Assembly: GCA_027218345.1 (NCBI GenBank)
Contig: GCA_027218345.1_3950.1
DNA length: 64,000 nucleotides
Strand: one strand, 5' to 3'
Source of the DNA: a phage
The stretch's first letter is position 1. Each line of letters begins with the position of its first letter. The position numbers and the translations under genes are program-made. Under the pieces are notes generated by a model that saw nothing but the letters and a program-made list of their open reading frames with translations, was not told the origin of the DNA and searched no databases. Of the stretch, positions 2,443-30,146 are shown piece by piece.

Positions 2443-2448
2443 ACTAAT

Positions 2449-2524: not shown

Positions 2525-2530
2525 AATGTC

Positions 2531-2606: not shown

Positions 2607-2613
2607 ATTAATT

Positions 2614-3036: not shown

Positions 3037-3049
3037 CCTAATAAGACTT

Positions 3050-3132: not shown

Positions 3133-3275
3133 ACTATAATTCGAAGCTTACCGTATTATCTCAACACTGTAAAGCCCCTTCTCAGATTATTTACATGTTC
3201 TGGAAAACATGAGATACAGACCACCTCCCTACAGGAAGACCCGCTTAGGTCGTCTAAGTAATCTGCTAACTAAAT

Positions 3276-3357
3276 TGGTCGAGGCGGCAGGACTCGAACC
3301 CGCATACTCCACTTACTCGGTTAACGGCTGTTTAGAAGACAGCTGAGATACGCCCCG
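3276..3357 (-). tRNA. tRNA-Arg-like (anticodon UCU), non-canonical architecture
   Basis: Encoded CCA, acceptor cggggcg/cgcctcg, T-arm GCGGG-TTCGAGT-CCTGC, stem-loop gctgt-CTTCTAA-acagc; no normal D-arm found and about 23 nt before the T-arm. Confidence 0.4.
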
Positions 3358-3561
3358 TAATTATCTTTAAAGACTCTCTTAGAAAGCCCTTAAAGATGCC
3401 CACCTTATTAATCATACCGTGGGCGAGTACGCCAAATTCTTTGATGAGGGGTTGGAAGACCTCACTGGTGTTTAGCCTATCAAGCTACTGCCAGAAAAAC
3501 ATTGTCGTTTGCATTTATTTTAAATTTGCAAAATAGACGCTACGCAACGAAAACTAAGGTT

Positions 3562-3590
3562 ACTATAAAGTAGTCACATCTCAGTGTCAA
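3562..3590 (-). promoter_or_regulatory. sigma70-like promoter candidate inside the tRNA cluster
   Basis: On minus strand TTGACA, 17 nt, TATAGT. Confidence 0.35.
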
Positions 3591-3605
3591 CAACTTTATT
3601 GAAAT

Positions 3606-3683
3606 TGGTACTGTGAGAAGGATTCGAACCTTCTGCCTTTCGGTTATCAGCCGAATGCACATCCATATGTGCTAACCCACAAT
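3606..3683 (-). tRNA. tRNA-Ile (anticodon GAU)
   Basis: Encoded CCA, perfect T-arm GAAGG-TTCGAAT-CCTTC, D-arm gcac-ATATGGAT-gtgc, anticodon stem ttcgg/ccgaa with loop CTGATAA; acceptor pairs only with a 4-nt connector. Confidence 0.5.
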
Positions 3684-3760
3684 TGGAGGTTCAGATGGGA
3701 TTCAAACCCACATTCATAGGGCTTATGAGACCCTTGCATTACCTTATCTGCGACTGAACC
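3684..3760 (-). tRNA. tRNA-Met or Ile2 (anticodon CAU)
   Basis: Encoded CCA, perfect acceptor ggttcag/ctgaacc, T-loop TTTGAAT, anticodon stem agggt/gccct with loop CTCATAA. Confidence 0.55.
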
Positions 3761-3764
3761 ATTT

Positions 3765-3840
3765 TGGTAGAAGTGGAGGGATTCGAACCCATCGCCTTTC
3801 AGATTAAAAGTCTGCCGCATCACCATTCTGCTACACTTCC
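3765..3840 (-). tRNA. tRNA-Lys (anticodon UUU)
   Basis: Encoded CCA, discriminator A, T-loop TTCGAAT, anticodon loop CTTTTAA. Confidence 0.55.
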
Positions 3841-3846
3841 ATTAAA

Positions 3847-3986
3847 TTATCTTTGTAGATAAGCTACCCAGACTTGCTTAAGGTCTGTAGCGATGTGCCT
3901 TTTTGGGTTTAAATCTAGAATTTACCCTTTCACCCTTTGTGGTCGCATACTCACAGGTAAGCTTAATAACTTATCTACAAAGATAA
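3847..3986. repeat. pair of identical 16-bp palindromic hairpins in inverted orientation flanking 108 bp
   Basis: TTATCTTTGTAGATAA at 3847-3862 and its reverse complement at 3971-3986. Confidence 0.6.
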
Positions 3987-4268
3987 TTACCAGACCGTTG
4001 TTTATCATCTTAAGTGCTACCATTACACCAACTCGACATCTGCCGAGTGAAGGAATCGAACCTTCGCCTTTTCTTTACCGAGAAATAGATTGTTTAAGTT
4101 TTGCTGTAAACGGTCTTCTGTAAATTTGTTGAGCCAGACCAAGTTTTAAATTTTTCAAAATTAAATTGGCTTGAAATTTTAAGTAACTTGCTGTATTTGG
4201 TCTTCTGCTCCTTTAAAGGATGCTCGTAAGAACCCTTTAAGGGAGGGGCTAAATAGCCCTCTCAAAAT

Positions 4269-4343
4269 TGGCGAGGTGTGCGAGAATCGAACTCGCGGCT
4301 CAGGAGAGACAATCCAGTATTTTACCCGTCTAAACTAACACCC
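4269..4343 (-). tRNA. tRNA, probable Asp (anticodon GUC)
   Basis: Encoded CCA, discriminator G, perfect T-arm GCGAG-TTCGATT-CTCGC, D-stem gttt/aaat, anticodon loop TTGTCTC with one stem mismatch. Confidence 0.45.
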
Positions 4344-4350
4344 CAAAACC

Positions 4351-4779
4351 CTATGTACCATTTCTTAAGTACTTTTCTTTGCGTCTTGCTGAATTATAGT
4401 ATTTACGCCCTTCAGCATTTTTAGAAAGCCTACAAGCCTCACACCTGCATCCTCTTCTATAACCAGAAACTGTACCATGTTTAATTGGTGTGTACTTCCT
4501 TTCACCAATCTGTTTTGGTCTTGTTGCTTTCGAGTTACAGTGTATGTGGCTATATGAGATGTTATCTAGTGAAAAGAAAAGCTCTTTTGCATTTTCACTA
4601 TGTCTCCACGGAGTCTTATGCTCAATAGAGAAATCATCCCTAGTCATTTCTTTCCCGCACTGAAAACATCTATTTTGATTTGTTTTACATATAAAATCAA
4701 ATAGTAAATCTTTTACTAGCCTGTTTTGTGCAGTTCCTAAACTCATACCAAGCTGTGATTTGTATACTTCATCTCTCAT
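4351..4779 (-). CDS. HNH homing endonuclease
   Basis: HNH/zinc motifs CFQCGKE...IEHKTPW...SHIHCN and C-terminal CxC cluster; embedded in tRNA cluster; internal ATG start preferred over TTG. Confidence 0.65.
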   Translation of the reverse strand: MRDEVYKSQLGMSLGTAQNRLVKDLLFDFICKTNQNRCFQCGKEMTRDDFSIEHKTPWRHSENAKELFFSLDNISYSHIHCNSKATRPKQIGERKYTPIKHGTVSGYRRGCRCEACRLSKNAEGRKYYNSARRKEKYLRNGT

Positions 4780-4802
4780 GACTAAGTATCTCAATAAGTG
4801 TT

Positions 4803-4890
4803 TGGTGTGCCGTGTAGGAGTCGAACCTACCGAGTCTCAATGACAAGGGATTTACAGTCCCCACCGCTACCATCTACGGGATAACGACAC
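4803..4890 (-). tRNA. tRNA-Tyr (anticodon GUA), class II
   Basis: 88 nt, encoded CCA, perfect T-arm GTAGG-TTCGACT-CCTAC, anticodon stem-loop gggga-CTGTAAA-tccct, long variable arm. Confidence 0.6.
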
Positions 4891-4899
4891 ATTTAAATT

Positions 4900-4976
4900 T
4901 GGCGGTTAGTCAGGGATTCGAACCCTGTGCCATTCGCTTAACAGGCGACCGCACATACCTTATGTGCTTCCTAACC
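4900..4976 (-). tRNA. tRNA-Asn (anticodon GUU)
   Basis: Encoded CCA, discriminator G, perfect T-arm CAGGG-TTCGAAT-CCCTG, D-stem gcac/gtgc, anticodon loop CTGTTAA. Confidence 0.55.
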
Positions 4977-5053
4977 TTAATACATTGCCAGACCGTGTTT
5001 TTTCTTTTATCCGCAAAAAGTATTTTGTTGCTGAATACGGTCTTCTGCAAAAT

Positions 5054-5130
5054 TGGAGGCGGGTGCAGGAGTCGAACCTGCCGATACCATGCTAATGAGA
5101 CATGTGAGACGCCCTTTCTCTATACCCGCA
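5054..5130 (-). tRNA. tRNA-Met or Ile2 (anticodon CAU), second copy
   Basis: Encoded CCA, perfect T-arm GCAGG-TTCGACT-CCTGC, anticodon stem catgt/gcatg with loop CTCATTA; T1:C72 mismatch. Confidence 0.5.
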
Positions 5131-5221
5131 ATTCTTAATGACCAGACCAAATCTCTTCTTTGTCCGATTTACCTTCAGATGAATAAGATTAAGTTTGCTG
5201 TAATTGGTCTTCTGTCAAAAC

Positions 5222-5299
5222 TGGCGTTCCAGAAGGGATTTGAACCCTCAAATATCCACTTTGAAAGAGTGGTGACTTTACCATTTTGTCTACTGGAAC
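5222..5299 (-). tRNA. tRNA-Glu (anticodon UUC)
   Basis: Encoded CCA, discriminator G, perfect acceptor gttccag/ctggaac, T-loop TTCAAAT, perfect anticodon stem ccact/agtgg, loop CTTTCAA. Confidence 0.55.
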
Positions 5300-5306
5300 A
5301 TTAATT

Positions 5307-5382
5307 TGGTCTCTGTTGGAGGACTTGAACCTCCGGCCTTACCGCCCCAAACGGAACGCTCTACCAAGCTGAGCTAAACAGA
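5307..5382 (-). tRNA. tRNA-Pro (anticodon UGG)
   Basis: Encoded CCA, perfect acceptor ctctgtt/aacagag, D-arm gctc-AGCTTGGTA-gagc, T-arm GGAGG-TTCAAGT-CCTCC, anticodon loop TTTGGGG. Confidence 0.6.
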
Positions 5383-5548
5383 GATAAACTTTTCAAACTC
5401 TATGTAACCACTTTAACATTATTTTTTAGTGGTTGTCAAGAACTTTTTAAAATATTTTTCAGTATCTTAGAAAAGCTCTCATTTCGTTTCTATGTAGAAC
5501 ATATTAAAGGGTATCAAACACATTGTCAATACCCTTTTTTAAAACTTT

Positions 5549-7045: not shown

Positions 7046-7417
7046 TTATTTTTTAAGCGTTGCTACAGCAGAGAACGTTGGTTTGTTATCTGTCTGAGAC
7101 TGACCACCATTATCAGGAGTCTTCTTAGTGTCTGCTGCAAGTGCTTTCATCTCACCTGCTGAGTGAGTAAAGATAGTTTTACCGACCTCAATCATACTCT
7201 TGATGGTTACGTCATCTGTGTTTAACCCGAACTCTGCAAGCTTAGCCGCGTCCCTTGTAACAATCGCCTCAAACAGCTTTGCAGCGAACTCAGCAGAATT
7301 ATCAATGGTCAGTTGAGCTTTTACGAGTGAGCTTTTGTTACGAGAGCCTTTTGGTCTTCCAGATGGGTTTCCAGACTGGCCTTTTTTAAACTGGCCTTTG
7401 TTTGTTCTGTTTTTCAT
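7046..7417 (-). CDS. hypothetical protein (GNPSGRPKG motif)
   Basis: 123-aa ORF, basic N-terminus. Confidence 0.5.
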   Translation of the reverse strand: MKNRTNKGQFKKGQSGNPSGRPKGSRNKSSLVKAQLTIDNSAEFAAKLFEAIVTRDAAKLAEFGLNTDDVTIKSMIEVGKTIFTHSAGEMKALAADTKKTPDNGGQSQTDNKPTFSAVATLKK

Positions 7418-7644
7418 TGGTATGCCTCTTATAAGACCTCTTAAAAGGCTTTTAAGATAAAAGATAGATATCCAGAAAGATATCTGTTTAAATAGCCTTT
7501 TTAGAGGAACCTTTTAAGTTATCTTCTAAGTATTTAGAAGCCTACACCTTGTCAAGTACTTTGTCAACAACTTTTTTAACTTGCAATAGTTCTTGACTTG
7601 TTGTATGGATTACTGTACCATCTTACTTAAGCTGTAGGTCTGCC
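7418..7644. promoter_or_regulatory. divergent promoter region between minus and plus gene blocks
   Basis: Intergenic, AT-rich, multiple TTGACA/TTGTCA hexamers including CACCTTGTCAAGTACTTTGTCAAC. Confidence 0.4.
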
Positions 7645-14061: not shown

Positions 14062-14623
14062 TGGTGTGATAGATATGGAAAAAGATAACTTAAAAGAAGT
14101 TGAAGGTAACTATCTAGTACTTGACTGGAATGATATTCGGGAAGCACTATCTAAAGAAAGCCTTGACATACTAGAGCAACTTATCTTCTCAGTACGTCAT
14201 ATCAGAGAAGTTAGAAATGGTAAAGAGCCACTTGAAGGAATCTTTGTAGAGAAGTCTTATCCGTTCTATGAAGACACTTTACAGAAAGTTAAGATGTACT
14301 TTAGACAGAAGAACCGTAAAGTGGTCACTATGGTCTCTCTTGGTGGACAGAGTATGTCTGTGATGGAAGATATCAACCCTAAGAGACCAAGTAAAGGTGT
14401 TTGTATAAAAATCACAGGTCATGAAGAGTATATCTCAGTGGATGACTTTAGTGCATTCTGTAATGGTTCTGCTGTCTTTAATGGGTTTCACTATGATATC
14501 CGAGTGTACCCAATCAAGGGAGATGATATCATGATGCAGGTATTCGATAACAACAACGGATTTACTCATTTTTATCAGACAACCAAGTCATCACTGAAGA
14601 CAGTTCTGGAAACACTGATTTAA
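14030..14623 (+). CDS. hypothetical protein (start uncertain)
   Basis: 197-aa ORF, last gene of plus block, followed by terminator. Confidence 0.45.
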   Translation: MQYQITKFYDNGVIDMEKDNLKEVEGNYLVLDWNDIREALSKESLDILEQLIFSVRHIREVRNGKEPLEGIFVEKSYPFYEDTLQKVKMYFRQKNRKVVTMVSLGGQSMSVMEDINPKRPSKGVCIKITGHEEYISVDDFSAFCNGSAVFNGFHYDIRVYPIKGDDIMMQVFDNNNGFTHFYQTTKSSLKTVLETLI

Positions 14624-14632
14624 AATATCTTA

Positions 14633-14665
14633 AGAGCCTCCTTAATTGGGGGCTTTTTAATTTTT
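14633..14665 (+). terminator. candidate terminator at end of plus-strand block
   Basis: GAGCCTCC...GGGGGCT hairpin then TTTTTAATTTTTAT. Confidence 0.45.
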
Positions 14666-16249
14666 ATAAAATTTATCGGTTGTCCCAACCTCTGGGTCAC
14701 CATCATATGTGAATAAAATATCTACCCTTCTTAACAACCTTCTTAAGCTTACTCTCTATATATATATAGTTATATAGTACTATATAGTATCTTAGTATCT
14801 ATCTAGTGGTCTTAATAGACCCTCTGTATAGCCCTTCTAAATAGCCCTCTAACAAACCTTCTTAACAACCTATACAATCACCTTAACCATCCCTCTACAC
14901 ACTCTTAGAAGCCCCTATACACCTCTTAATCTCTAGGTCAGCTATGTTACCCTCTATAGGTGTTCACTAGGAAATACTAAGCCTCTATATAGACTGTTTT
15001 AACAAACTTAACAGGAATATCTTTACAGACCTTATCTCACAAGGTCTAACACGGTACTAACAAGGTATCTTATAAGCCTGTTTCTACCTGTATTTTTAAA
15101 AGACTGTATAGGTAATTATTCAGAATTTTAAAATTTTTATAAAATAGAGTTGTCAAGTCATTTTTTAGGGTCTTTGAAGGAACTCAAAAATATCTGTAGA
15201 AGATGTATATCTGCTTGGTAGCCCTTAACAGTTCCTTAACACCCCCTTTGCAAAATTTTAAAATATCATTAACAATCTCTTAACAGTTCTCACATCTTCT
15301 TAACAACTCTTCAAAGGTCTTAACAGATTCTTAACAGAACTAACAAGAGCGTAACAGTTTCTTAACAGTTGATACATAGCCTTTACAGATGCTTAACAGA
15401 TGACTAACAAGAGCTATATAGTTAATTTTTAAGGGTTATTTTGTAAAGATAATTAACAAGTTCCTAACAAGTGTTTAATCTTTTTAACAAGCTATTAACA
15501 TGGTCACTATCTCTTCCCTTATTGTTCCCTTCCTCTCTTAGTGACCCTTTAAACATACCTCTTAAAAGCTCTCTATAGCTCTGTATAGCCCCTTTTAAAC
15601 CTCTTCCTAGTATCTACCCCTCAACTGTATGGATAGCTCTTTATAGGGCTTTACAGGGGCTTTAAAGGCTATGCCAAAGGTTCTTACAAGGCTTTTACAT
15701 GGTTGTAACAGAGATTTAACAAGGGGCTAACAAGTATAACTATGTAGGGTTTGTTAAGAAATTGTTAAGAAAATGTTAAGGGGGCTAGCATTTACGTAAC
15801 TTTTAAGCTATCTATCACGTAACTCTATAGTTTCTTTTACGTAACTTTGAAGTAACTTCATAGCCCCTTTTTAGTAGTTCACAAGGAACTAACGAGATAA
15901 TAAAGCTTATAACCTTATAAGATTCTTTTAAGCCTCTATAAAGCCCTGTAAAGAGCTTTTTAAGGTGAGTTAATGCAATCCATTAAGTTAGGTTGATAAG
16001 GCTGTTATAGGGCTTTGTAGAGCGTTTAAGGGGTTGCCCTTCCCTTTCGGGTTATGGGCTTGTATTTAAGTTGATTTGATAAAAGGCTATAGAGTAGACT
16101 ATAGAGTTATTACTTTTTAAGGTCTGATAAAGTTCTGACTTGTTAGGTGGGTTTTAAGATTCTGGAAAGGGATTTGATAGACGTAAAAAAGCCCCATTTA
16201 AGGGGCTGTAAAGGTATCTGGGGCTATTCAGCCCCCGTTAATTGACAAT
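14666..16249. repeat. ORF-free repeat-dense tract (iteron-like arrays)
   Basis: Clusters of TTAACAG/CTAACAAG, ACGTAACT and GTTAAG direct repeats, TATATAG-rich segment, several GC hairpins; no ORF of 60 aa or more. Confidence 0.6.
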
Positions 16250-16780
16250 TTACAGATTTTTGATTGTCTCGTCAATATCTTTTTCAATATCTTTTAAAGT
16301 TTTTTCTAAGTTCTTGATATTGAAAGTTAAGCCTTCACCGATGGTTTTAGCGTAACCGCTAGGACGTGAGTTATATAGTTCGATTTCTTCCACTTCGAAG
16401 AGACTAACCAACTCACCGCTTACATTGTAAGCCATTGAAACAGTGTTTACAGGGGCTTTATAAAACTTGTTCAATGACTTGAGAGAACGTTCATAAGCCA
16501 TTTTATAACTGTTTAAAAGGCTTTTAACGTGTTTGTGAACGTTTTTACACTCATCTAAGTAAAGCCCTAAAAACATCGGGAGAAGTTCCGCTACAGCTTG
16601 CATAAAATGAGAGGCTGCAACGGTTGCAACATTACGACGATGAACGTAATAAGCCCCTTTTTCTGATTTGGTGATTGTTGCAAAGTGTACACCATTACAA
16701 CGAAATTCGTAGGTATCTTTAACAGGCTTAGACATTACAGCATTTGAGCGGATGTAATTGATGGCTTTGAACTTGTTCAT
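16250..16780 (-). CDS. hypothetical protein
   Basis: 176-aa ORF preceded by conserved type-A cassette. Confidence 0.5.
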   Translation of the reverse strand: MNKFKAINYIRSNAVMSKPVKDTYEFRCNGVHFATITKSEKGAYYVHRRNVATVAASHFMQAVAELLPMFLGLYLDECKNVHKHVKSLLNSYKMAYERSLKSLNKFYKAPVNTVSMAYNVSGELVSLFEVEEIELYNSRPSGYAKTIGEGLTFNIKNLEKTLKDIEKDIDETIKNL

Positions 16781-16999
16781 TTTGACTCTCCTAGTTTAAG
16801 GATTTTATTTAGTGGGGAGGTCATCCCTCCCGTTGATTAGTAATTTACTTGTTTTGATATCTGATTGCAAGCAATTTTTTAAGCTTATCTATAAAGAATC
16901 TTTTAAGTTAATCCCTTTTAGATAAACCCCCTCGAACAACATTACCAATGTCAAGGGGCGTTGTCAATACTTTTTTGAAAGTTTTTTGTAAGTTATTGA

Positions 17000-17341
17000 T
17001 TAACTGATGAATATTTTTTCAGGTTTTACATAGCTGATACGTTGGTTTTTTAGCAGGTCATCCCAGATTAGCGCGGCAATATGAGAATAGCCGGATTCAC
17101 GTAAAAGCTTCATTGCTTTACTTCTCGTTTCGAAGCGGCTTGCATAGTACTCACTATTCAGAGTTGTTCTCTTCCCTTCATTGTCTACATGGATAATCTG
17201 CATCACTTGAAAGGGGCTTGTGTCCTCGCCTTTATTCCACTGTTCAAAGTATTTTAGGCACTGCATAGGTGACATCTTATCACTGACCTGAGTTGACCAA
17301 GATGCGCCAGCTTTATCGGTAATTACGGTTACATAAGCCAT
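17000..17341 (-). CDS. hypothetical protein
   Basis: 113-aa ORF preceded by type-A cassette. Confidence 0.5.
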   Translation of the reverse strand: MAYVTVITDKAGASWSTQVSDKMSPMQCLKYFEQWNKGEDTSPFQVMQIIHVDNEGKRTTLNSEYYASRFETRSKAMKLLRESGYSHIAALIWDDLLKNQRISYVKPEKIFIS

Positions 17342-17430
17342 TTTTGAATCTCCAGTTTAGGACTTTATTTAGTGGGGAAGGTCATTCCCTCCCCGTTGAT
17401 TGACAATTTACAGACTTTTATCAGGCTTGT

Positions 17431-17664
17431 CTAGTCTTTTTCAATGATAATTTCATACTGACCATCTACGCTGTCAAAATAGATACCGTCTTCATCTTCT
17501 GTCTTAAAGTAACATTGGATATCATCACTAGCGGGATAGTCTTGCCTTGCTATCTGGCACACTTGAACAGCATTTTCTTTACTCCCTGTAAACTCCTCAA
17601 GCCCTTTAAAATCGCATGAATGACCGTTACAAATAGAAAGGATGAGATAAACGGTTGTAAGCAT
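17431..17664 (-). CDS. hypothetical small acidic protein
   Basis: 77-aa ORF with hydrophobic N-terminus. Confidence 0.45.
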   Translation of the reverse strand: MLTTVYLILSICNGHSCDFKGLEEFTGSKENAVQVCQIARQDYPASDDIQCYFKTEDEDGIYFDSVDGQYEIIIEKD

Positions 17665-17730
17665 GATTTAAGCCTCCTAAAAGCCCCTACAAGGGGCTGA
17701 TTAGTGTTTATAAGGTGATTGCATAGGTTT

Positions 17731-18273
17731 TTAGAAAAAGCTCTTTAAATCCTCTTCTGCAATGTTTCCTGTCAGTGTATCAATGATGTCACAAAAAACC
17801 TGAATACTGTCTGACTGTTGAACACTTTTAGCGAGAAGCTCCAGAGACTCATCAAGATAGTTTAAATTTGGGTTATCCAATGAAGGAAGACAAAAAGGTG
17901 AATACATAGCGTTAAACTCTGTTGTATAGACCTTTTTAATCCAATTTACATCAAAGTACTCTGTAAAACTTGCTACACTCGACATATTATCACAAGAATA
18001 ATCATCATTTAGTTCATCCTCTGGAATATCGAGTTCTAAGATAACAATATTTTGGGTTTTCATCTGGAAGGCCGCCGTAATAGTGGCGTTCCCTAGAGCT
18101 TGCTGGATACCTTCGGATGTTATCTCTTCCTCATCGTCGCCACAGATTTTATTTTCTGGATACACGTAAAAATTGCCGTCCATATCCGAACAATTCCATG
18201 CGCCTGATGGTTTATCACCGTTATTAATCAGGTTGAGGAAATTTTCTTGAGTAGTACCGTGAAAACATTTCAT
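17731..18273 (-). CDS. hypothetical strongly acidic protein
   Basis: 180 aa, very high Asp/Glu content and few basic residues; preceded by type-B cassette. Confidence 0.5.
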   Translation of the reverse strand: MKCFHGTTQENFLNLINNGDKPSGAWNCSDMDGNFYVYPENKICGDDEEEITSEGIQQALGNATITAAFQMKTQNIVILELDIPEDELNDDYSCDNMSSVASFTEYFDVNWIKKVYTTEFNAMYSPFCLPSLDNPNLNYLDESLELLAKSVQQSDSIQVFCDIIDTLTGNIAEEDLKSFF

Positions 18274-18360
18274 TTTTGAATCTCCTAGTTTAAGGATTGA
18301 GTGGTAAAGCTCTTTATCTGGGGCTTACTTTATCGAACTATAAGCCCCTTGTAAAGTGCT

Positions 18361-18609
18361 TTATTTAACTTTCTTTGAGAAAACTAGTTTGACTGCAACT
18401 GTAGGAATCTCGCCAGCAGTTGTAACCAGCATTACTTTTTGAGTAACCAACCTATAGCCGTTCTTTGCAGCGTATGCGGTGAAACGGTTAACATTGTAAC
18501 TATAAGTTTTTGCCGTGTTATCTGGCATGTGGTAAATGAAAGGTTTACCCAAATTTTCTTCTTGTGTCAATAATCTACAGGTATCGGGAATGTTAAAGTA
18601 GTTCATCAT
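18361..18609 (-). CDS. hypothetical protein
   Basis: 82-aa ORF preceded by type-B cassette. Confidence 0.45.
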   Translation of the reverse strand: MMNYFNIPDTCRLLTQEENLGKPFIYHMPDNTAKTYSYNVNRFTAYAAKNGYRLVTQKVMLVTTAGEIPTVAVKLVFSKKVK

Positions 18610-18702
18610 TTTTAGAATCTCCAGTTTAGGATTTAGTGGTAAAGCTCTTTATCTGGGGCTTAAGTTATCAACTTTTAAGCCCCTTGTAAAGTACTTTATT
18701 TG

Positions 18703-18900
18703 TTATTTTTTGACAACTTTTAAAACTGCAAGATAGCCTAAGCAATAAGAATCACCGAAGAGAGTCCTACCCATGAAAGAATCCTCTTTGATATCCTTTG
18801 CAGTGACAGTTTTTTCTACGCCGTTGGAAAGGACTATATCGCCAACTTTGATATCTTTGATGTGTGTAGTTTCAATGGTTAAACCATTAATAATAGCCAT
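18703..18900 (-). CDS. hypothetical protein
   Basis: 65-aa ORF preceded by type-A cassette. Confidence 0.45.
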   Translation of the reverse strand: MAIINGLTIETTHIKDIKVGDIVLSNGVEKTVTAKDIKEDSFMGRTLFGDSYCLGYLAVLKVVKK

Positions 18901-19000
18901 TTTTGAATCTCCAGTTTAGGACTTTATTTAGTGGGGAAGTTCATTCCCTCCCCGTTGATGTGTAATTTAATCTATCTAAAAACCAGTGTCAACAAAATTT

Positions 19001-19405
19001 TTAGAGTTCTGCATAAATTGCATCACAGATATCACGGAAGTCGTGATTAGTCAAATTACGCTGCAACCAAGTGGCGAAAAAGTCAGCGATTGCAAAATTA
19101 GCATCATACTCGACAGATAGCCACACTTTAACAGCAAATCGGAACATTTTCAAATCTAACTCTTTATTCATTACCTTAGATTTGCCTAACATGTCGGACA
19201 TTTCATATTGCGCACCGTCTAGCGTGATACCTGCTGCAACGTCAGCCAATGAATTTTTTACGTTTTCAACGTCTAAAATAACGCTTTGAATCTTTCCGAT
19301 AATGTTGTGCAATGTCTCATCAGGCGCTGATGATGTCATAATGTTGATTCGATTAACGGTCAAACGTGCTTTTAAGGTTGATAATTCACGGTTATTAATA
19401 GCCAT
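19001..19405 (-). CDS. hypothetical protein
   Basis: ORF trimmed to ATG (MAI...) after GGAGAA RBS inside type-B cassette. Confidence 0.5.
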   Translation of the reverse strand: MAINNRELSTLKARLTVNRINIMTSSAPDETLHNIIGKIQSVILDVENVKNSLADVAAGITLDGAQYEMSDMLGKSKVMNKELDLKMFRFAVKVWLSVEYDANFAIADFFATWLQRNLTNHDFRDICDAIYAEL

Positions 19406-19491
19406 TTTTAAGTTCTCCAATTTAGGATTGAGTAGTAAAGCTCTTTATCTGGGGCTTAAGGTATCAACTTCCAAGCCCCCTGTAAAGTACT

Positions 19492-19764
19492 TTACACTAA
19501 ATGCAGTTTTTTACCTTTTACTATAATGTAACTCGATGCGCTATTGCTACATACATCTTGATAAATTCTGCGCAAACGGCCTTCGTAGTGTACTTTCCAA
19601 CTGGTTGGAATCTTTTTACCGTATCCCGTAGCAGTTTTTTGGAGTCCTGCTACTTGCCAATCTAAGATATGTTGTTCAGCTTGTAAATCTTCAAAGTGCA
19701 TCACCCCGTTGATGTAGTGGCGTAGGGTTACATTCAAAGTGCGACCGTTGTTAGTAGTATACAT
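19492..19764 (-). CDS. hypothetical protein
   Basis: 90-aa ORF preceded by type-A cassette. Confidence 0.45.
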   Translation of the reverse strand: MYTTNNGRTLNVTLRHYINGVMHFEDLQAEQHILDWQVAGLQKTATGYGKKIPTSWKVHYEGRLRRIYQDVCSNSASSYIIVKGKKLHLV

Positions 19765-19852
19765 TCTAGAATCTCCAGTTTAGGACTTTATTTAGTGGGG
19801 AAGTTCATTCCCTCCCCGTTGATGTGTAATTTAATCTATCTAAAAATCAGTG

Positions 19853-20185
19853 TCAAACACTTTGTTTTCGTTTGCTCAATTCTTGAACAATTACAGCGTG
19901 ATAGTCTTTCAAGTCACTGATATTTAAAGCATTTATTAGTGAATTATAATCATCGACTAACTGAAAATTATCTTTGAAAATGTCACTGATTTGATAAGTT
20001 CTTGCCCTGAATCTGAAGCTCATCTCTAACCGTTTTAATTGTTCATCACTTAAACGCTCTAGAAAGCTCATTACAAGGCTATTGCTAACCTGTTGTGTGA
20101 TTGCCTTACTTGCCAGATTATAGGCGCTATAAGCCTTATAGAGCGCCAGAATAGCGATGATTGCAGTTATGCCCATCATTAACAT
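19853..20185 (-). CDS. hypothetical membrane protein
   Basis: 110-aa ORF with N-terminal hydrophobic helix. Confidence 0.45.
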   Translation of the reverse strand: MLMMGITAIIAILALYKAYSAYNLASKAITQQVSNSLVMSFLERLSDEQLKRLEMSFRFRARTYQISDIFKDNFQLVDDYNSLINALNISDLKDYHAVIVQELSKRKQSV

Positions 20186-20475
20186 GGTGTTGCCTCTTTA
20201 CGTGATACTTTGCCATTTACAGATATCTCATAAGATTCTAATAAATCGCTTTTAGACTTTACTGGACTTTTAAAAGTATCATCATAGATATTGACTTGTA
20301 ATACAGGTTTTTTATACTCCCTGCAACTGTTCCATAAGCAAATAACTACACGACGACCTTTTATTTTGCCGTGTAACCATTCCATAACATCATGGCTATT
20401 CCTTGATGTTTCAATGAAATCAATTTTGTTGAGTAATTTGCTCAGATTTTCACGCACTTGATTTGATAATTTCAT
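20179..20475 (-). CDS. hypothetical protein
   Basis: 98-aa ORF preceded by type-B cassette. Confidence 0.45.
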   Translation of the reverse strand: MKLSNQVRENLSKLLNKIDFIETSRNSHDVMEWLHGKIKGRRVVICLWNSCREYKKPVLQVNIYDDTFKSPVKSKSDLLESYEISVNGKVSRKEATPC

Positions 20476-20567
20476 TTTAGAATCTCCTAGTTTAAGGGCT
20501 TTATTTGGTAAATCTCTTTATCTGGGGCTATCCTACCAGCTTGATAACCCCGTGTAAAGAAATCTAT

Positions 20568-21080
20568 TTAGTTCTTAAAGATATTCATCACTGAATCTTT
20601 CAACGATTCCAAACGTTCTAATACTTCAGTTTCTGCGTCTGAGTTGTTCACTTCTTCTTTTAGTCTGTCATCTAAATCATCGCCGTCACTATAGCACCAA
20701 TCAAAAGCGTAACCAATATAAAAACTGTCTAAAATTGTTTGACCATTTGCATCGACAACTTTCGCGGCAAGGTTGTACTCTGAAGCCTCTAAATCTCTTT
20801 CTAGTTCTTTCTGTAAGCTTGCGTAAGCCTCTTTTGATGGATTTTCCCGGCCTTGTTTTGCATAGTCACTAGAAAGCTGTTTAAGGCTGTAATGTAAAGG
20901 GATTGCATATTTAAATTCATTACGCTGACAGTTGGGATTTTTAACAGTCACGCCGCCTTGATGGTCATCTGTAAACTTCCAATTATCAAGATTATGGCTT
21001 GCTTCATAACAATTGACAGCTTCGTAAATAATGGTGAATTTTTCTTTTACAACTTCAAAGGTAGCGTCTACAGTTTTCAT
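20568..21080 (-). CDS. hypothetical acidic protein
   Basis: 170-aa ORF preceded by type-B cassette. Confidence 0.5.
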   Translation of the reverse strand: MKTVDATFEVVKEKFTIIYEAVNCYEASHNLDNWKFTDDHQGGVTVKNPNCQRNEFKYAIPLHYSLKQLSSDYAKQGRENPSKEAYASLQKELERDLEASEYNLAAKVVDANGQTILDSFYIGYAFDWCYSDGDDLDDRLKEEVNNSDAETEVLERLESLKDSVMNIFKN

Positions 21081-21167
21081 TTTTGAATCTCCTAGTTTAA
21101 GGATTTAGTGGTAAAGCTCTTTATCTGGGGCTTAAGATATCAACTTTTAAGCCCCCTGTAAAGTACT

Positions 21168-21461
21168 TTATTTGTTAATTTTCAGCTTTGCATAACTTCT
21201 CATTGTACGAATGGGGGATGTTAATGCTACGCGTCTAATGTATGCCTTTTTCGTGTATACAGTTGTCTTCCCGATATTGTTTACACATGTAAAAAGGTTT
21301 ATCGGTGAATTTTTTAACTTCAACTGTTTATCAGCCTTCACGCCCCACCTTACAGCAGATTGTTTTCCGTTGTCAACCACTTTCCCGCATAACTTTTTAG
21401 CCATAACGCGAGCGTCATCACGAGTTTTTGCAGCAATTACAACGTTTTTGATAATAGCCAT
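21168..21461 (-). CDS. hypothetical protein
   Basis: ORF trimmed to ATG (MAII...) after GGAGAA RBS inside type-B cassette. Confidence 0.5.
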   Translation of the reverse strand: MAIIKNVVIAAKTRDDARVMAKKLCGKVVDNGKQSAVRWGVKADKQLKLKNSPINLFTCVNNIGKTTVYTKKAYIRRVALTSPIRTMRSYAKLKINK

Positions 21462-21547
21462 TTTTAAGTTCTCCAATTTAGGATTTAGTGGTAAAGCTCT
21501 TTATCTGGGGCTTACTTTATCGAACTATAAGCCCCTTGTAAAGTACT

Positions 21548-21931
21548 TTATTTGTTAATTTTGAGGATTGTTACATAACCATCACTACCGATGATTTGCG
21601 ACGCTCCAACTTTTTCTACTGAATAGCCCATATTTTCAAGATGATAGACAGCATCATCATAACCATATGCGCCGCCCTGATAACGTCTCTTATCGCATCT
21701 TATCAGGTTTTTCCCACGTCCAGCAAGTGCATTGAGAATAGTTTTTTCGCTTGAAAGCGTACCATCTATCATAGTTGCCGTGTAGTGGTTGATTTTATTC
21801 CCGTTGATATCATACTTAAAATTGAATGCGTGAACAACAATTTTATTCCCTTTAAAATTCTCATCAAGTGACTTCTCCAGTGCGTTGCGAAAGTTGTCTT
21901 TGTTGATGAATTTAGGTGCACGATATGCCAT
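21548..21931 (-). CDS. hypothetical protein
   Basis: 127-aa ORF preceded by type-A cassette. Confidence 0.5.
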   Translation of the reverse strand: MAYRAPKFINKDNFRNALEKSLDENFKGNKIVVHAFNFKYDINGNKINHYTATMIDGTLSSEKTILNALAGRGKNLIRCDKRRYQGGAYGYDDAVYHLENMGYSVEKVGASQIIGSDGYVTILKINK

Positions 21932-22452
21932 TTTTGAATCTCCAGTTTAGGACTTTATTTAGTGGGGAAGGTCATTCCCTCCCCGTTGATGCAAATACTA
22001 GATAACCACGTTCAAAGAGTCAAGAAAAAATTTTAAAAATATTTTTGGCAAAACTGTAATGAAACGGGCGCACACGACTACCACAAAACAGAACACAAAT
22101 CAAGAATTATTTCTCAATCCGCTACAAATTTTTCTCTTGACTTTTGGGGAGAGGGGGAGTAAGAGGGGGAGAGGGGTTGGTCTGGCTCTCTATAAAAACC
22201 TACCTGCACAATCCTAAAATGATTTTTCTTGCCCGACCTGAGTGTGGTCTGCACGTTTTGAAAATGAAAAAGCTCTTTGGAGATTATCTGCACAGTTTGA
22301 AAATGAATTTTCTCTTTGGAGTTCAAAATTCTCTCTACAGATTTCTCTACAGAACTCTACCTGCACAATTCTGAAATGAAAAAGCCCTCCTTACCTGAAA
22401 AATTTACCAGATAAGAAAGGCTTAGGCTATTGTGAATATACTACAGAGTTTC

Positions 22453-23238
22453 TTAGTTCTTTGCGTCTAAGAAGGTAACTTCTGGTGAAGAGAAAACTGT
22501 CTCGATATCCTCATCAGTTCTTGCATAGATATAAGTATCTGCATCACTGCCAAATGTTACTGCAATCCTGTGATTGCTCTTCGACAGGTGGGTAACTAGA
22601 GCGTTACTCAGAGACATCTTTTCAACCGGAGGGTTACTTTGATGTATCTTACCTTTTCTTCGTCTGAAGAGGGTAACTGCGTTATCTGTGAACACTGCTA
22701 CACCTGCAAAGTATTCTGGTTCACAGTAGTTCTTCCAACCTGAGAGTAACTTGTGGTACATCTCTCCTTCATAGACATATAGATAAACATCTACACTCTT
22801 CATCACCTGATTGATGATAACTGTGACGGCTTGAGGGTCAAGTCCATCGATACCTGCACCAATCATAGGTAAACCAACTTTCTTCAACTGATTGACTTCA
22901 CAGTATCTGTTAAGCTGCTTCAAAGATGACTCTAAAGCACTGTATCGGGCATCTTTACCAGTATGAAGTTGGGTGTAAAGGTTAGCTATACGACCTTGTT
23001 TTAAACGTGCTACAGAGAAATTACCTAGTAAATTTTCACAGGGTTTGTGGCGAATGCCACCTGCAAACAGGTAAACTTCTGTGTCAGTATCATACACTTT
23101 TGGATAACGCTTAGAAATAGTTGCTGCAATACCTGCACCCATGAAATTCATACAGTTGCAACCATGACCAATGATGTCAAACTTACCTTTATCAAATGCG
23201 TCAAATATATCGCCATTGATGATTTTTACAATACCCAT
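22453..23238 (-). CDS. macro-domain protein (putative ADP-ribose processing enzyme) with C-terminal extension
   Basis: N-terminal GDIFDA...DIIGHGCNCMNFMGAGIAATI and LPMIGAGIDG resemble macro-domain ADP-ribose binding loops. Confidence 0.55.
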   Translation of the reverse strand: MGIVKIINGDIFDAFDKGKFDIIGHGCNCMNFMGAGIAATISKRYPKVYDTDTEVYLFAGGIRHKPCENLLGNFSVARLKQGRIANLYTQLHTGKDARYSALESSLKQLNRYCEVNQLKKVGLPMIGAGIDGLDPQAVTVIINQVMKSVDVYLYVYEGEMYHKLLSGWKNYCEPEYFAGVAVFTDNAVTLFRRRKGKIHQSNPPVEKMSLSNALVTHLSKSNHRIAVTFGSDADTYIYARTDEDIETVFSSPEVTFLDAKN

Positions 23239-23439
23239 TTAACATCTCTCCCAAGATTCTTTATCTTCTGAAGGCTTTACACGTTGCCCTTCGTGGTCTA
23301 CCCAGATACATCCACAACCTTCACAGATTACTGGCATTGCATAGCCAGCTTTAAAGTCATCTTCAGTGATAAGACCTTTTAAGTCTCCTGTATCACGCCC
23401 GAACATTTCGATAGCACAATCTTTGCAGAAGTCAGCCAT
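23239..23439 (-). CDS. small zinc-ribbon protein
   Basis: CKDC...CEGCGC cysteine pairs; start moved to internal Met. Confidence 0.4.
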   Translation of the reverse strand: MADFCKDCAIEMFGRDTGDLKGLITEDDFKAGYAMPVICEGCGCIWVDHEGQRVKPSEDKESWERC

Positions 23440-23659
23440 GAATAATTGCCTCTTGAATGATGATACCTTTGCCACAACGACTTTTGAAGTCTTCCAATGG
23501 TTGTGAGATGAAGCCACGCAAGCAATAACTAAATGCTAATTTTTCCCTGTAGGCTATCACATCATTTGCTGTAAATGGAATCACTTTATTTCTTCCAATG
23601 AATACTGCTGAACGTACAATCTTGCGGGTCTTTTTATCTCTGGCTAGTATTACTTTCAT
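23432..23659 (-). CDS. hypothetical protein
   Basis: 75-aa ORF. Confidence 0.35.
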   Translation of the reverse strand: MKVILARDKKTRKIVRSAVFIGRNKVIPFTANDVIAYREKLAFSYCLRGFISQPLEDFKSRCGKGIIIQEAIIHG

Positions 23660-27701: not shown

Positions 27702-27779
27702 CTTATTACTCTCTCTTGTCAGTTAATAATCATTTTGTGATGCTATTTTAAGGGGCTTTGAAGCCCCTTGTCAAATACT

Positions 27780-30146
27780 TTAATCGTAATCTGTTGTACC
27801 TTCTGGAACACATTTTACATCAAAGCCTAAGAACTTACTCACTTCGATGGGTGACACTTTATTCCAATCTAAATGAGAAAGCAAGAAGTTTTCTTGTTTT
27901 CTTTTTGAAAGGTAGTTTGTCACCTTAATAACCATACGGTCACCAGCTTTCTTAATTTTCTTGTACAGCTTTGTATCATTGTCAAGACAGTCTTTCAAAG
28001 TTTTCAATACACTAATGGTATAAGTGTATGCAAATGGTGCAGCAACGTATTGGATTTTACCGAACATTGCCTCTACAGCCTCTTCATTTCCTTCTAGGAA
28101 GATAGTTTTGTTTGTATCCCTTGAATAACAATACCCGCGAGAAATCTTCCTGTTATTAAACGTAAAGTCTCTGGCAATAATCCAACTGCTTGTAAGGTCA
28201 AGGACACCATTCATATAGATACGCGTCATATATCTGTTATGGTTAATCCAGTGAACATCAGTTAAGCTGTCGTTCAAGAGTTTCTCATCTACTTCAATCC
28301 AATCTTCTGGTATCTTTTTCCAATTTGCTTTTCGGAAAACATAGACTGTCTTACCTGTAACATTAGCAACTGACTTAGCTACATCTTCTGGAGATGAGCA
28401 AAAACATTCACCATCAACTGTGTCACCAATTGCCTTAATGTAAAGCTGAGGTTCTTCAATTGTGTCTAAGTCCTCTGACACCTCTTTGTAGGAGGCTACA
28501 CCTTCTGCTGGAACAGCTTTCCAGAGTTTTACAACACCTCTTACAGCTTCTTTACGCTGATAATGGTGTTCCTTATCAGACATCTTCACAATCTTTAACA
28601 AACTCTTATCAAGTTTGTGTAGATTGATTAGGTCGTCTAACTCTTTCTCATTAGAGAATACGAAGACAATACCGTTGTATCTGTGAAACAGACTTGACTC
28701 GCTGGCATAGTCTCGACATGCACCACGTAGAATCTGGTTGCGTCCTACAGTCTTCTCAGTACCGTTTTTATTGCGACGGTCATTAATCACGAACAAAAAC
28801 TGTTCAATTTGGCTTTTACGCATTACACCAAAGATATTGAACATACTTGCCTCTTGAGTGTAGGAAAGTGCTGTTGCACGAATCTTACTCTCTAAAGAGT
28901 TGAACTTGACATAAGCAACTGGGTTATAAAGATAATCTACTTTAGGGATATTGTTCCCGTTCCTATCAACCTTAATATTGCCTTTACCGTCACGTTCATA
29001 AATGACTGAGCCGTCTTCTGCGTAGATAATCCCACGACGAATGTTTAGCAATTCTTCTTCCAGAGAATCAAGCTTAACGCCTCCCCACTCTAGCTTTGGA
29101 CACACAGCATTAAACATCTCTCGTGAGTTCAAACGTAACTCAGCATAAGCCTGTGCAGCATCCATGAGTGTAGGTTGGCTATTAACTTTCTTGATAACAT
29201 CCTTTGTAATGGCTTCAGTTATCTTTTTAGTAGCCTCAATGATAACATTTTTTGTAGTGTCATTCATCTGCAATGCTTCACGAGAAGCTGCAATAGCAAC
29301 TGAACCAATAGGCATGTAGATGTTTACAAGGTCTACGCTCCTACGGAAAAATTCTGGCAATACTTTGAAGAAATCATCTCCAAGTAATGCTTCCATGTTA
29401 ACAGGGTAGGCAATGTTACCCATCACCACATTAAACTCTGTTCTGTTAGCGCCAGAACGCCAGCTTTGCTTATGAATCATGGCATCATAAACACCTTCTT
29501 CACGGGCAATGACGTTCATATCTGCTAATACATCGTCGTACTCAATATTACTTTCTGGTTTTACAGTGAAGTATGAGTACACATTCCCAGCTTCTTCAAA
29601 GAACTTTGAGATACGGTGGTCAGCAACTGCCACACGTACAGCTAAACCATTAGGTTCTTTTGTTGGGTTAGTTGTCAGCTTAGTTACTTGAGGGATACCA
29701 TTCTCAAGATAAACAGAGTACTTATTAACAACACCGTCAACATAGCTAGATACTGTGAATGACTGAGCAATTGCAAATGGTGACTTTGAGCCGATACCCA
29801 TTGCACCAATGTAGTCATTAGAGTCATTCTTCGTAGAAGCTCCATAGTTTAGGTACAAACTCATAACTTTATCATGAGTCAATCCAGTTCCAAAATCACG
29901 AACTTCGAAGTAAGGCTCAAAACGAGTAGGTAAATGCACATGGAATGGAATGTTCTCTTTTCCAGCTTCTTTCTGAGCATCTACTGCGTTACATGACAGT
30001 TCACGAATCACTGCCCTTTCTTTAAAGGTGTATACACCAGAACTCAAAAGGCTGAACATCTCAGGTGTCATTGTAATCTGTGCTTGAGATGTCTCTAAAG
30101 AAGTTGAACTCTTAATCACTTCTGCGTGGTCATTTACCATGCGCAT
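27780..30146 (-). CDS. rIIA: rIIA-like protein with N-terminal GHKL-type ATPase fold
   Basis: 788 aa; motifs VRDFGTGL and GAMGIGSKS (Bergerat fold) near N-terminus. Confidence 0.6.
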   Translation of the reverse strand: MRMVNDHAEVIKSSTSLETSQAQITMTPEMFSLLSSGVYTFKERAVIRELSCNAVDAQKEAGKENIPFHVHLPTRFEPYFEVRDFGTGLTHDKVMSLYLNYGASTKNDSNDYIGAMGIGSKSPFAIAQSFTVSSYVDGVVNKYSVYLENGIPQVTKLTTNPTKEPNGLAVRVAVADHRISKFFEEAGNVYSYFTVKPESNIEYDDVLADMNVIAREEGVYDAMIHKQSWRSGANRTEFNVVMGNIAYPVNMEALLGDDFFKVLPEFFRRSVDLVNIYMPIGSVAIAASREALQMNDTTKNVIIEATKKITEAITKDVIKKVNSQPTLMDAAQAYAELRLNSREMFNAVCPKLEWGGVKLDSLEEELLNIRRGIIYAEDGSVIYERDGKGNIKVDRNGNNIPKVDYLYNPVAYVKFNSLESKIRATALSYTQEASMFNIFGVMRKSQIEQFLFVINDRRNKNGTEKTVGRNQILRGACRDYASESSLFHRYNGIVFVFSNEKELDDLINLHKLDKSLLKIVKMSDKEHHYQRKEAVRGVVKLWKAVPAEGVASYKEVSEDLDTIEEPQLYIKAIGDTVDGECFCSSPEDVAKSVANVTGKTVYVFRKANWKKIPEDWIEVDEKLLNDSLTDVHWINHNRYMTRIYMNGVLDLTSSWIIARDFTFNNRKISRGYCYSRDTNKTIFLEGNEEAVEAMFGKIQYVAAPFAYTYTISVLKTLKDCLDNDTKLYKKIKKAGDRMVIKVTNYLSKRKQENFLLSHLDWNKVSPIEVSKFLGFDVKCVPEGTTDYD

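Follow-up and report, generated by a model that had tools for sequence, protein, structure and literature searches.

A 64,000-nucleotide (nt) stretch of phage DNA (NCBI GenBank assembly GCA_027218345.1, contig GCA_027218345.1_3950.1; the stretch at its full length is called the window here) contains a block of 13 small minus-strand open reading frames (ORFs; 65-180 amino acids (aa); 16250-21931 in the ORF list), 11 of which have one of two repeated elements, type A or type B, in front. This raises the question of what these elements do and why nearly every gene of the block is provided with a copy. The window belongs to a Felixounavirus (Felix O1-like), and the block is the counterpart of Felix O1 ORF14-23, flanked by equivalents of the terminators t13 and t23. 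We consider it likely that the elements are composite cassettes that combine a promoter, a stem-loop and a ribosome-binding site (RBS) in the manner of the promoter-early stem-loops (PeSLs) of T4-type phages (Arbiol et al. 2010, PMC2839356; Comeau et al. 2014, PMC4122927), whereby grammar, conservation, pairing in the sense RNA and chimeric junctions are read directly from the sequences, and promoter activity, transcription start sites, the effect of the hairpins on RNA and the recombination pathway are inferred from them.

Architecture of the two cassette types

A profile search (nhmmer) with models made from the window's own cassette copies yields five full type A elements (E-values 1e-18 to 5e-29) and six full type B elements (1e-22 to 1e-29, both for the 64-kilobase (kb) window), in agreement with an earlier interpretation of the DNA without database searches (the sequence-only reading), which had claimed at least 11 repeated elements of two subtypes before small minus-strand genes. 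Together with one truncated type A remnant, all copies are located on the minus strand between 16186 and 22028; nhmmer finds no full copy elsewhere in the window, and a repeat search identifies the two families as the window's longest dispersed repeats. A single grammar running from stop codon to ATG parses all 11 full copies, each of which terminates at the ATG of a small ORF. With 97-101 nt, the conserved unit is longer than the 70-95 base pairs (bp) given originally, as the promoter (type A) or the stop codon and the lower stem (type B) belong to it, and the range of 16781-21995 has to be extended on both sides, i.e. to 22028 for the promoter of the first cassette and to 16186 for the remnant and the terminator.

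Type A elements are composed of an A-tract, which is found upstream of every -35 hexamer, the -35 hexamer itself (TTGACA, TTGACT, TAGACA or TTGCAA), a 17-nt spacer, a -10 hexamer (TAAATT or TAGTAT), 6 nt, CAAC, a hairpin, ACTAAATAAAGT, the RBS and 6-8 A-rich nt preceding the ATG. Four of the five full copies and the remnant are called by a promoter scan, with 9-10 of 12 matches and a 17-nt spacer; the copy at 16870 (TTGCAA) is absent from this consensus list. An alignment of 38 unique copies from 12 phages shows no variation at T-TG of the -35 hexamer, T, A and final T of the -10 hexamer, CAAC, and GG. The length of the spacer is constant at 17 nt and its sequence is wholly different among about seven contexts. 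In several contexts the coding sequence of the upstream gene extends over the -35 hexamer and the spacer, and stop codons are located inside the hexamers (TGA in TTGACA, TAG in TAGACA, TAA in TAAATT). Such a pattern is what selection on a sigma70 promoter would predict, and not what would be expected for a mere repeat.

The type A hairpin (GGGGAGGG-loop-CCTTCCCC) begins 10 nt past the -10 hexamer and comprises 7-8 bp including one G·U pair, with predicted folding energies of -16 to -18 kcal/mol and z-scores of about -2 to -2.5. Judged by the usual distance of 7 nt, the A's of CAAC would be the transcription start, which leaves ~3 nt ahead of the stem. The loops are variable (AAUGA, GAAUGAA, GAUGA, CGAUAA, GGAAA), which speaks against a loop-specific binding protein, and a function as nut/boxB-like or put-like antitermination hairpin finds no support, since the loops vary in both length and sequence. 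An upstream mini-ORF starting at the ATG in the loop (GGGAATGACC..TAA) was rejected as well, as many variants (GATAA and GGAAA loops) contain no ATG. In GenBank this loop ATG (e.g. 21976-21974) serves as start codon of Felix O1 ORF19 and pinkbiff gene 60, which lengthens the N-termini (105 vs 90 aa and 135 vs 113 aa); these starts are probably mis-called, the genuine RBS and ATG being located 35-40 nt downstream.

Type B elements begin at the upstream stop codon and form a predicted three-tier hairpin of 20-21 bp in total, consisting of AAAGU/GCUUU, CUUUA/UAAAG, a 3x3 internal loop, GGGGCUUA(U)/(G)UAAGCCCC and a terminal loop of 10-12 nt. The DNA of this hairpin contains the hexamers of a putative promoter: TTTACA (-35) is the 5' part of the middle tier and is followed exactly 17 nt downstream by TAnnnT (TAAAGT, TATCTT, TAGGAT, TACCTT or TAACTT) in the loop/3' arm. 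The promoter scan calls four of the six copies, at 9-10 of 12 matches and with a 17-nt spacer. Among 36 unique copies from three genera, i.e. Felixounavirus, Mooglevirus (Michonne) and an Erwinia phage (Coenus), CTTTACA as well as T, A and final T of the second hexamer are invariant, and the remainder of the loop is variable.

Folding of type B elements is predicted at -24 to -28 kcal/mol (z-scores -3.5 to -5.3), and for four of the six copies none of 200 shuffles folds as stably or more stably, whereas for the copy at 21081-21175 two do. In the alignment of the stem 96.8% of the cells pair in register, compared to 33-59% if the 3' partner is slid by 1-3 columns, and double changes from GC to UA occur at pair 17-42 (Erwinia phage) and at pair 4-55 (one subfamily). 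U·G wobbles are present at pair 19-40 in 15 of the 36 copies and at pair 5-54 in 32 of them. As each of these pairs would turn into a C·A mismatch on the complementary strand or in a DNA cruciform, selection seems to have acted on the structure of the sense RNA. In read-through transcripts this structure would form the end of the upstream cistron, and a transcript from the embedded promoter would start at about CCCC-A-GAUAAAG, i.e. without the hairpin.

Both types finish in a common module of ~35-40 nt, CCACTAAAT(AAAGT)CCT(T)AAACT(A)GGAGATTCAAAAATG. The GC-rich hairpins quoted in the sequence-only reading are exact (GGGGAGGGAATGACCTTCCCC at 21984-21964 and 17394-17374; GGGGCTTAAAAGTTGATAACTTAAGCCCC in the copy at 18704-18607); its Shine-Dalgarno (SD) sequence is less fixed than stated, CCTAAACTGGAGA being found exactly in five of the 11 copies, CCTAAATTGGAGA in two and CCTTAAACTAGGAGA in four. 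Among 102 unique cassettes the tail takes the forms CCT-AAACT-GGAG (45), CCTT-AAACT-AGGAG (41) and CCT-AAATT-GGAG (13), and none of the 102 is a single-insertion intermediate between the CCT..GGAG and CCTT..AGGAG tails. In predicted folds CCU(U) pairs with (A)GGA of the SD sequence (e.g. 21951-21939 and 21102-21088), and the extra T and A of the longer allele would add a U-A pair to this weak stem. Copies from the Erwinia phage read CCUU..AAGG or CCUC..GAGG. A weak SD-occluding stem may be conserved, which we regard as a lead only.

In the order of the array the first cassette is of type A (21929-22028, like all others on the minus strand), with the A/T-rich tract aaaaatatttttaaaatttttt immediately upstream, TTGACT at 22023-22018, TAGTAT at 22000-21995, CAAC, the hairpin at 21984-21964, ACTAAATAAAGT, the RBS CCTAAACTGGAGA at 21951-21939 and the ATG at 21931. 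It is followed by three type B cassettes located at 21459-21557 (upstream stop codon within the lower stem; TTTACA at 21542-21537; TAAAGT at 21519-21514 in the loop/3' arm; AGATAAAGAGCTTTAC at 21506-21491; RBS at 21482-21470; ATG at 21461), at 21078-21177 (TTTACA-17-TATCTT with TG preceding the -10 hexamer; RBS CCTTAAACTAGGAGA; ATG at 21080) and at 20473-20572 (TTTACA-17-TAGGAT; stem variant GGGGTTATC/GATAGCCCC, lower stem AGATTTCTTTA/TAAAGAGATTT; ATG at 20475). The next two type A cassettes, at 19762-19862 (TTGACA-17-TAAATT, the -35 hexamer containing the TGA stop of the upstream gene; hairpin at 19817-19797; ATG at 19764) and at 18898-18999 (TTGACA-17-TAAATT; hairpin at 18953-18933; ATG at 18900), are 93% identical over 106 nt and enclose a type B cassette at 19403-19499 (TTTACA-17-TACCTT; ATG at 19405). 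Two further type B cassettes are located at 18607-18704 (TTTACA-17-TAACTT; ATG at 18609) and 18271-18369 (TTTACA-17-TAAAGT; ATG at 18273), and the last two full copies are of type A, one at 17339-17436 (TAGACA-17-TAAATT, the -35 hexamer containing the TAG stop of the upstream gene; hairpin at 17394-17374; ATG at 17341) and a variant at 16778-16876 (TTGCAA-17-TAAATT; hairpin GGGAGGGATGACCTCCCC at 16831-16814; RBS CCTTAAACTAGGAGA; ATG at 16780). All 11 were identified by nhmmer, fold and parse, and all except those at 19403-19499, 18607-18704 and 16778-16876 also by the promoter scan.

The truncated type A remnant (16219-16276, minus strand; nhmmer match at 16276-16222, scan and fold) has its promoter, TTGACG-17-TAAATT, within the 3' end of the 176-aa gene, whose TAA stop is contained in the -10 hexamer. 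It is fused at CAA(C/T)..AACGGGG to the terminal hairpin GGGGGCTGAATAGCCCC, which normally comes after the last gene, and is the trace left by the disappearance of two genes which KhF1, XTG1 and wV8 carry next. The sole long intergenic spacer of the block that has no cassette (17665-17730, minus strand; sequence and scan) contains a short hairpin, AGCCCCTTGTAGGGGCT (17698-17682), then TTTTAGGAGG, then the ATG of the 77-aa gene.

Gene turnover at the cassettes

We compared 12 full loci, i.e. those of the window, KhF1, XTG1, Mushroom, Felix O1, tootiki, pinkbiff, LTH02, fKMPT1, wV8, Michonne and Coenus. The gene order is syntenic, gains and losses occur as cassette-plus-gene units, and at least six events have their junctions inside cassette homology. 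Past the long phosphatase spacer the first gene always has a type A element with an A/T-rich upstream tract, and four different genes are found at this position. The 127-aa gene (21931) is preceded by type A in the window and in Mushroom and by type B in KhF1, XTG1, LTH02, fKMPT1 and Michonne. Between ORF20 and ORF21 four genes are missing from Felix O1, and their place is taken by one chimeric type A cassette, which joins the 5' part of the cassette found after ORF20 in other phages to the RBS variant of the cassette found there before ORF21. The 87-aa gene, present in KhF1, XTG1 and wV8, was lost via at least two different junctions; in Felix O1 the junction lies at TAAATT, in pinkbiff and fKMPT1 behind the hairpin. 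In the window both this gene and the next one are gone, the join at CAACGGGG connecting the type A head to the hairpin that comes after the last gene. Relocation is seen for a 62-65-aa gene, which heads the array in KhF1 and XTG1 and is found eleven genes later in Michonne. The same phage contains a tandem duplicate and an 'empty' cassette; the latter is a type B element between two 85-aa paralogues (~7350-7520 of the locus) whose RBS and ATG run straight into the CTTTACA of the next type B element, so that a complete ORF seems to be missing between AAAATG and AAAGTG. Finally, type B loop variants sit at different positions in different phages, and such shuffling points to gene conversion.

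In total, 55 sequences including IMG/VR contigs (43 stretches, all from contigs of 54-94 kb) contain 368 cassettes and 19 cargo families, seven of which are found behind both types. The turnover would thereby consist of differential loss, duplication and relocation in a small closed pool, more than of open acquisition. The cassette-exchange hotspot for accessory genes proposed earlier is borne out by the chimeric cassettes at indel junctions and by the genes found behind either type, but not as a place of open foreign-gene acquisition, given the 19 families. The argument that the cassettes are more conserved than the coding sequence was dropped: at orthologous positions cassette identity is not uniformly above gene identity, because cassette types have been swapped at several positions.

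The cargo offers no function in the scans carried out with Pfam (10 proteins) and PHROGs (10 proteins), which between them covered 12 ORFs. These 12, i.e. all but the 77-aa ORF at 17431-17664, have no Pfam domain and/or match PHROG families of unknown function alone.

Proposed composite promoters, rival explanations and known systems

According to the mechanism that we propose, the unit of ~100 nt would span the interval between the stop codon of a small early gene and the next gene's start codon and would combine a sigma70-type promoter, a G4...C4 stem-loop and a strong A-rich SD region. Host RNA polymerase would start at the type A promoters and, more weakly, at those of type B. The type A hairpin would cap the 5' end of its own mRNA and may serve as stabiliser or insulator. 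The type B hairpin would act on the upstream transcripts, be it as attenuator, RNase III-type site or 3' stabiliser, and the weaker promoter in its DNA would restart transcription just beyond the stem. The common tail would supply each gene with the same strong translation start. Being long and near-identical, the cassettes would also be preferred substrates for homologous/microhomology recombination, which would delete, duplicate and relocate cassette-plus-gene units with a working cassette staying at the junction.

The surroundings of the block are in line with this scheme. A terminator scan identifies a canonical intrinsic terminator upstream of the block, 3' of the phosphatase gene (22382-22423, minus strand; the t13 equivalent), and another one that closes it (16190-16207, minus strand; AGCCCCTTAAATGGGGCT + TTTTTT, the t23 equivalent). 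With a t13-like terminator upstream, the block needs promoters of its own. In Felix O1, ORFs 16, 20, 21 and 22 peak at 5 min in reverse transcription PCR (PMC3185647), and these early maxima, crude as they are, agree with composite cassettes. Of the 'phage-specific promoter or RNA-processing' role suggested in the sequence-only reading, the relation to promoters and RNA is retained and phage specificity is not, as the signal is of the host sigma70 type (TTGACA/TTTACA-17-TAnnnT); RNA processing is possible for type B with its interrupted hairpin of ~20 bp and unlikely for type A with 7-8 bp.

Several observations weigh against composite promoter cassettes. The -10 hexamers of type B are weak (3-4 of 6 matches) and have a GC-rich discriminator, i.e. 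the type B promoters may be poor or silent. Covariation in the type B stem comprises two pairs alone, most stem columns being invariable, and the shuffle statistics overstate the support, as the copies are related by descent and gene conversion. Since the cassette hairpins have no U-tract, the tails behind them reading ACTAAAT.. and AGATAAAG.., classical intrinsic termination is not to be expected. With regard to recombination, the cargo pool is small (19 families), whole-gene indels in a tight array must end in intergenic DNA anyway, and the real evidence consists of the chimeric junctions, which come from the 12 full loci only. A literature search, moreover, found no transcriptome of a Felixounavirus.

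How, then, do other explanations compare? A more far-reaching one, possible in our view and rather doubtful, is an integrase-free gene-cassette system with two interchangeable heads (head A, a strong promoter plus 5' hairpin; head B, a 57-nt sequence serving the gene upstream as RNA processing/attenuation hairpin and the gene downstream as promoter DNA) and the shared ~35-40-nt tail acting as RBS and crossover site. Genes would be excised as circles and re-inserted behind any cassette, with their expression class being switched, and either the type A 5' hairpin or a phage factor acting on the invariant AGAUAAAGAGCUUU/SD-occluding stem would set read-through of the array and translation. The elements might instead work purely post-transcriptionally, i.e. 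one polycistronic early RNA would start from the promoter at 22023-21995, the hairpins would be used for RNase III/RNase E processing and stabilisation, and the internal hexamers would be unused. The interrupted type B hairpin of ~20 bp with its 3x3 internal loop does belong to the size class of RNase III substrates, the G·U wobbles indicate selection on the sense RNA, and the block is headed by one strong UP-element-like promoter and ended by a canonical terminator. However, such a scheme leaves unexplained why T-TG and TA...T are invariant at a fixed distance of 17 nt, even in the non-homologous coding sequence of seven upstream genes, and why TA of the type B loop is invariant although unpaired; as the type A stem, with 7-8 bp, is in addition too short for RNase III, we consider this explanation unlikely. 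A phage regulator might bind the elements for co-regulation, either at a DNA operator (near-palindromes TAAAGnnCTTTA flank the type B stem) or, in the case of a translational repressor, at an RNA operator on the RBS module, which would account for an identity far above the need of a generic hairpin or promoter, with AGATAAAGAGCTTT and CCTAAACTGGAG almost invariant across genera, for the weak CCU(U/C)/SD stem in three genera and for the missing single-insertion intermediates among the 102 unique copies. Gene conversion among copies yields high identity as well, though, neither hairpin has a conserved loop, and the analysis identified no candidate for the regulator, rendering regulator sites a quite improbable explanation, which could nevertheless be true alongside the composite cassettes.

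Still less probable are mobile elements, either selfish, MITE-like mini-elements or the sites of an integron-like site-specific cassette system. They are suggested by an array of small ORFs that are each bounded by an imperfect hairpin repeat, by the gene relocated in Michonne and by the 'empty' cassette there, whereas the junctions lie at varied points of the cassettes and not at a single fixed crossover site, copies are absent from the DNA outside the block, from 5,426 E. coli genomes and from 72,556 plasmids, and no dedicated recombinase was seen beside the array, none having been looked for. The lowest probability is assigned to transcription terminators, on the plus strand or, without U-tract and without promoter role, on the minus strand. 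KT184313 and KT184316 annotate the type A hairpin as plus-strand Rho-independent terminator, and stem-loops of T4-type PeSLs cut lacZ expression like a strong terminator (PMC2839356), yet neither strand carries a T-run behind any cassette hairpin and the scan calls none of them terminator-like while it does call the flanking t13- and t23-like terminators, just as the sequence-only reading had argued against simple terminators. Furthermore, the block has no plus-strand genes to terminate, and on the plus strand C·A mismatches would replace the wobble pairs; on the basis of scan and wobble pairs we reject the plus-strand terminators of some GenBank records, and attenuation of sense transcription is already part of the composite-cassette explanation.

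In architecture the composite cassettes agree with the published PeSLs in every respect: a conserved intergenic unit of ~100 bp with the stop codon in an A/T-rich stretch at its 5' edge and SD sequence and start codon at its 3' edge, sigma70-like -35/-10 hexamers with an A/T-rich region upstream, a stem-loop of a G-run and a C-run that includes G·T pairs and lies either between or over the hexamers (type B) or just past the -10 hexamer (type A), concentration before small ORFans in a plastic region, and relatives that differ by cassette-flanked genes, a single chimeric cassette remaining. In contrast to PeSLs, which number ~50 copies in several hyperplastic regions, there are two sharp types with one RBS module here, amounting to 11 copies in a block of ~6 kb; type B has a long three-tier stem, and stop codons are often located within the promoter hexamers. 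PeSLs are further characterised by measured promoter activity, terminator/attenuator activity of the stem-loop and mini-circles of cassette and gene. Since the genome belongs to the Ounavirinae and is not T4-like, and since blastn detects no sequence similarity to T4-like phages, the likeness is one of design; the relation is probably convergent and not one of descent. The literature search found PeSLs mentioned only for T4-like phages, cyanophages and jumbo phages. The cassettes, previously noticed only as unexplained direct repeats, are best filed as a member of the PeSL kind in another phage lineage.

Other known systems share single features with the cassettes. The early genes of phage T7 are separated by RNase III sites, i.e. 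interrupted hairpins of about two turns without U-tract between cistrons that are transcribed by host RNA polymerase. The interrupted type B hairpin resembles them in being located between cistrons without U-tract and would likewise leave a 3' hairpin upstream, but the T7 sites are not near-identical repeats and have neither an embedded promoter nor a fixed RBS. 5'-terminal stem-loops such as the hairpin in the ompA 5' untranslated region protect E. coli mRNAs from 5'-end-dependent decay, and the type A hairpin would similarly begin ~3 nt from the 5' end, as judged from the hexamer position alone. In the promoter-coupled terminators of bacteria the DNA of a stem-loop gives the -35 element, the T-tract is the spacer and the -10 element follows (Fletcher et al. 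2026 preprint, doi 10.64898/2026.08.19.745784). Common to both is that one stretch of DNA ends one unit and starts the next, although in the cassettes the -35 hexamer is located 5' of the stem, the -10 hexamer is in the loop/3' arm and there is no T-tract. The SAS/ESAS elements of Cluster K mycobacteriophages are conserved asymmetric SD repeats situated a few bases before the start codons of some non-structural genes, about half of them with an inverted repeat just upstream and with different gene families per phage; the authors, who proposed no promoter, considered an RNA hairpin poorly supported (Pope et al. 2011, PMC3203893). A fixed SD repeat with an upstream inverted repeat is thus a shared trait, but the sequence is unrelated (GGGATAGGAGCCC), and in the cassettes pairing is supported and the sigma70 hexamers are most conserved.

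If the composite-cassette explanation is correct, cassettes of the PeSL type are not peculiar to T4-like phages and would represent a convergent solution in unrelated virulent myoviruses, in which one short sequence gives each accessory gene its promoter, hairpin and RBS and, being repeated, allows genes to disappear, double or change place while expression stays intact. Stop codons located in promoter hexamers, and a -10 hexamer in the loop of a selected RNA hairpin would be compact overlapping codes. As Felix O1-like phages are widely used for typing of Salmonella/E. coli, biocontrol and therapy, and isolates differ in this block, the cassette grammar may help to predict early transcription units, to correct annotation and to choose places for the insertion of payload genes.

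Distribution, earlier records and neighbouring features

Escherichia phages LMP33, LMP25 and ULIM3 match the region at 94% identity and Salmonella phage Mushroom does so at ~90%, all 257 matching records being Felix O1-like. Aligning the copies and searching other phages, as recommended in the sequence-only reading, gave a consensus from 36-38 unique copies, and nearly all blastn matches of either cassette type belong to Felix O1-like phages (Ounavirinae), those of type B also including Citrobacter and Erwinia genera. T4-like phages are absent from the matches of either type, one Staphylococcus and one or two Campylobacter records having been left unexamined; these otherwise foreign entries in Felix O1-like match lists are probably mislabelled or contaminated. 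A host-derived (REP-like) or plasmid origin was rejected, with 0 matches in 5,426 complete E. coli genomes and 72,556 plasmids, and an Rfam scan of 14500-23500 at E<=1 returned five chance-level matches (20-26 bits vs gathering scores of 34-77).

The repeats themselves have been recorded before. The Felix O1 genome paper lists a 57-bp and a 39-bp repeat among 'twelve direct repeats', uninterpreted and outside its promoter list (PMC3185647). The former is the core of type B, the latter the promoter part of type A. The GenBank record of wV8 labels the repeats DR_1-DR_9, which are not discussed in the text of the wV8 paper, and in the records of KhF1 and XTG1 (KT184313, KT184316) the type A hairpin appears as a Rho-independent terminator of the opposite strand, as it does in that of wV8.

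Non-repeated composites of promoter and hairpin are found elsewhere in the window, namely at 27745-27780 (minus strand), 36519, 55669, 30738, 24814 and 10368. In the rIIA/rIIB spacer the stem AGGGGCTTCAAAGCCCCT fills the gap between TTGACA and TAAAAT, and the promoters of three such composites are situated immediately upstream of GGCTCC..GGAGCC + T-run terminators, suggesting that the promoter-plus-hairpin design is a habit of this genome.

Some further features of the window are worth mentioning. The spacer between the t13-like terminator and the first cassette (22024-22452) contains a polypyrimidine tract on the minus strand (CCCCTCTCCCCCTCTTACTCCCCCTCTCCCC, ~22175-22140), three repeats of ~35 nt (22248, 22287, 22360) and a 36-nt pair (22187, 22344). 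On the other side, 14650-16190 comprises ~1.5 kb without an ORF of at least 50 aa and has many short GGGGCT/AGCCCC words; it may be a genome-end, packaging or origin region that separates two convergent gene blocks. YTGTTAR motifs on the minus strand are dense here; they number 96 in the window, 70 being expected, and 23 of them are located in 14731-15733. A cluster of 24 transfer RNA genes on the minus strand (99-5383) is typical of Felix O1-like phages. Finally, a 35-nt motif that holds two TTGTCAA/TTGACAA words is present in two 86% identical copies, at 7544-7578 and 52085-52119, both at strand switches, the latter between the ORFs at 51489-51911 (minus strand) and 52139 (plus strand), and this pair is a candidate for a shared regulatory site of divergent early promoters.

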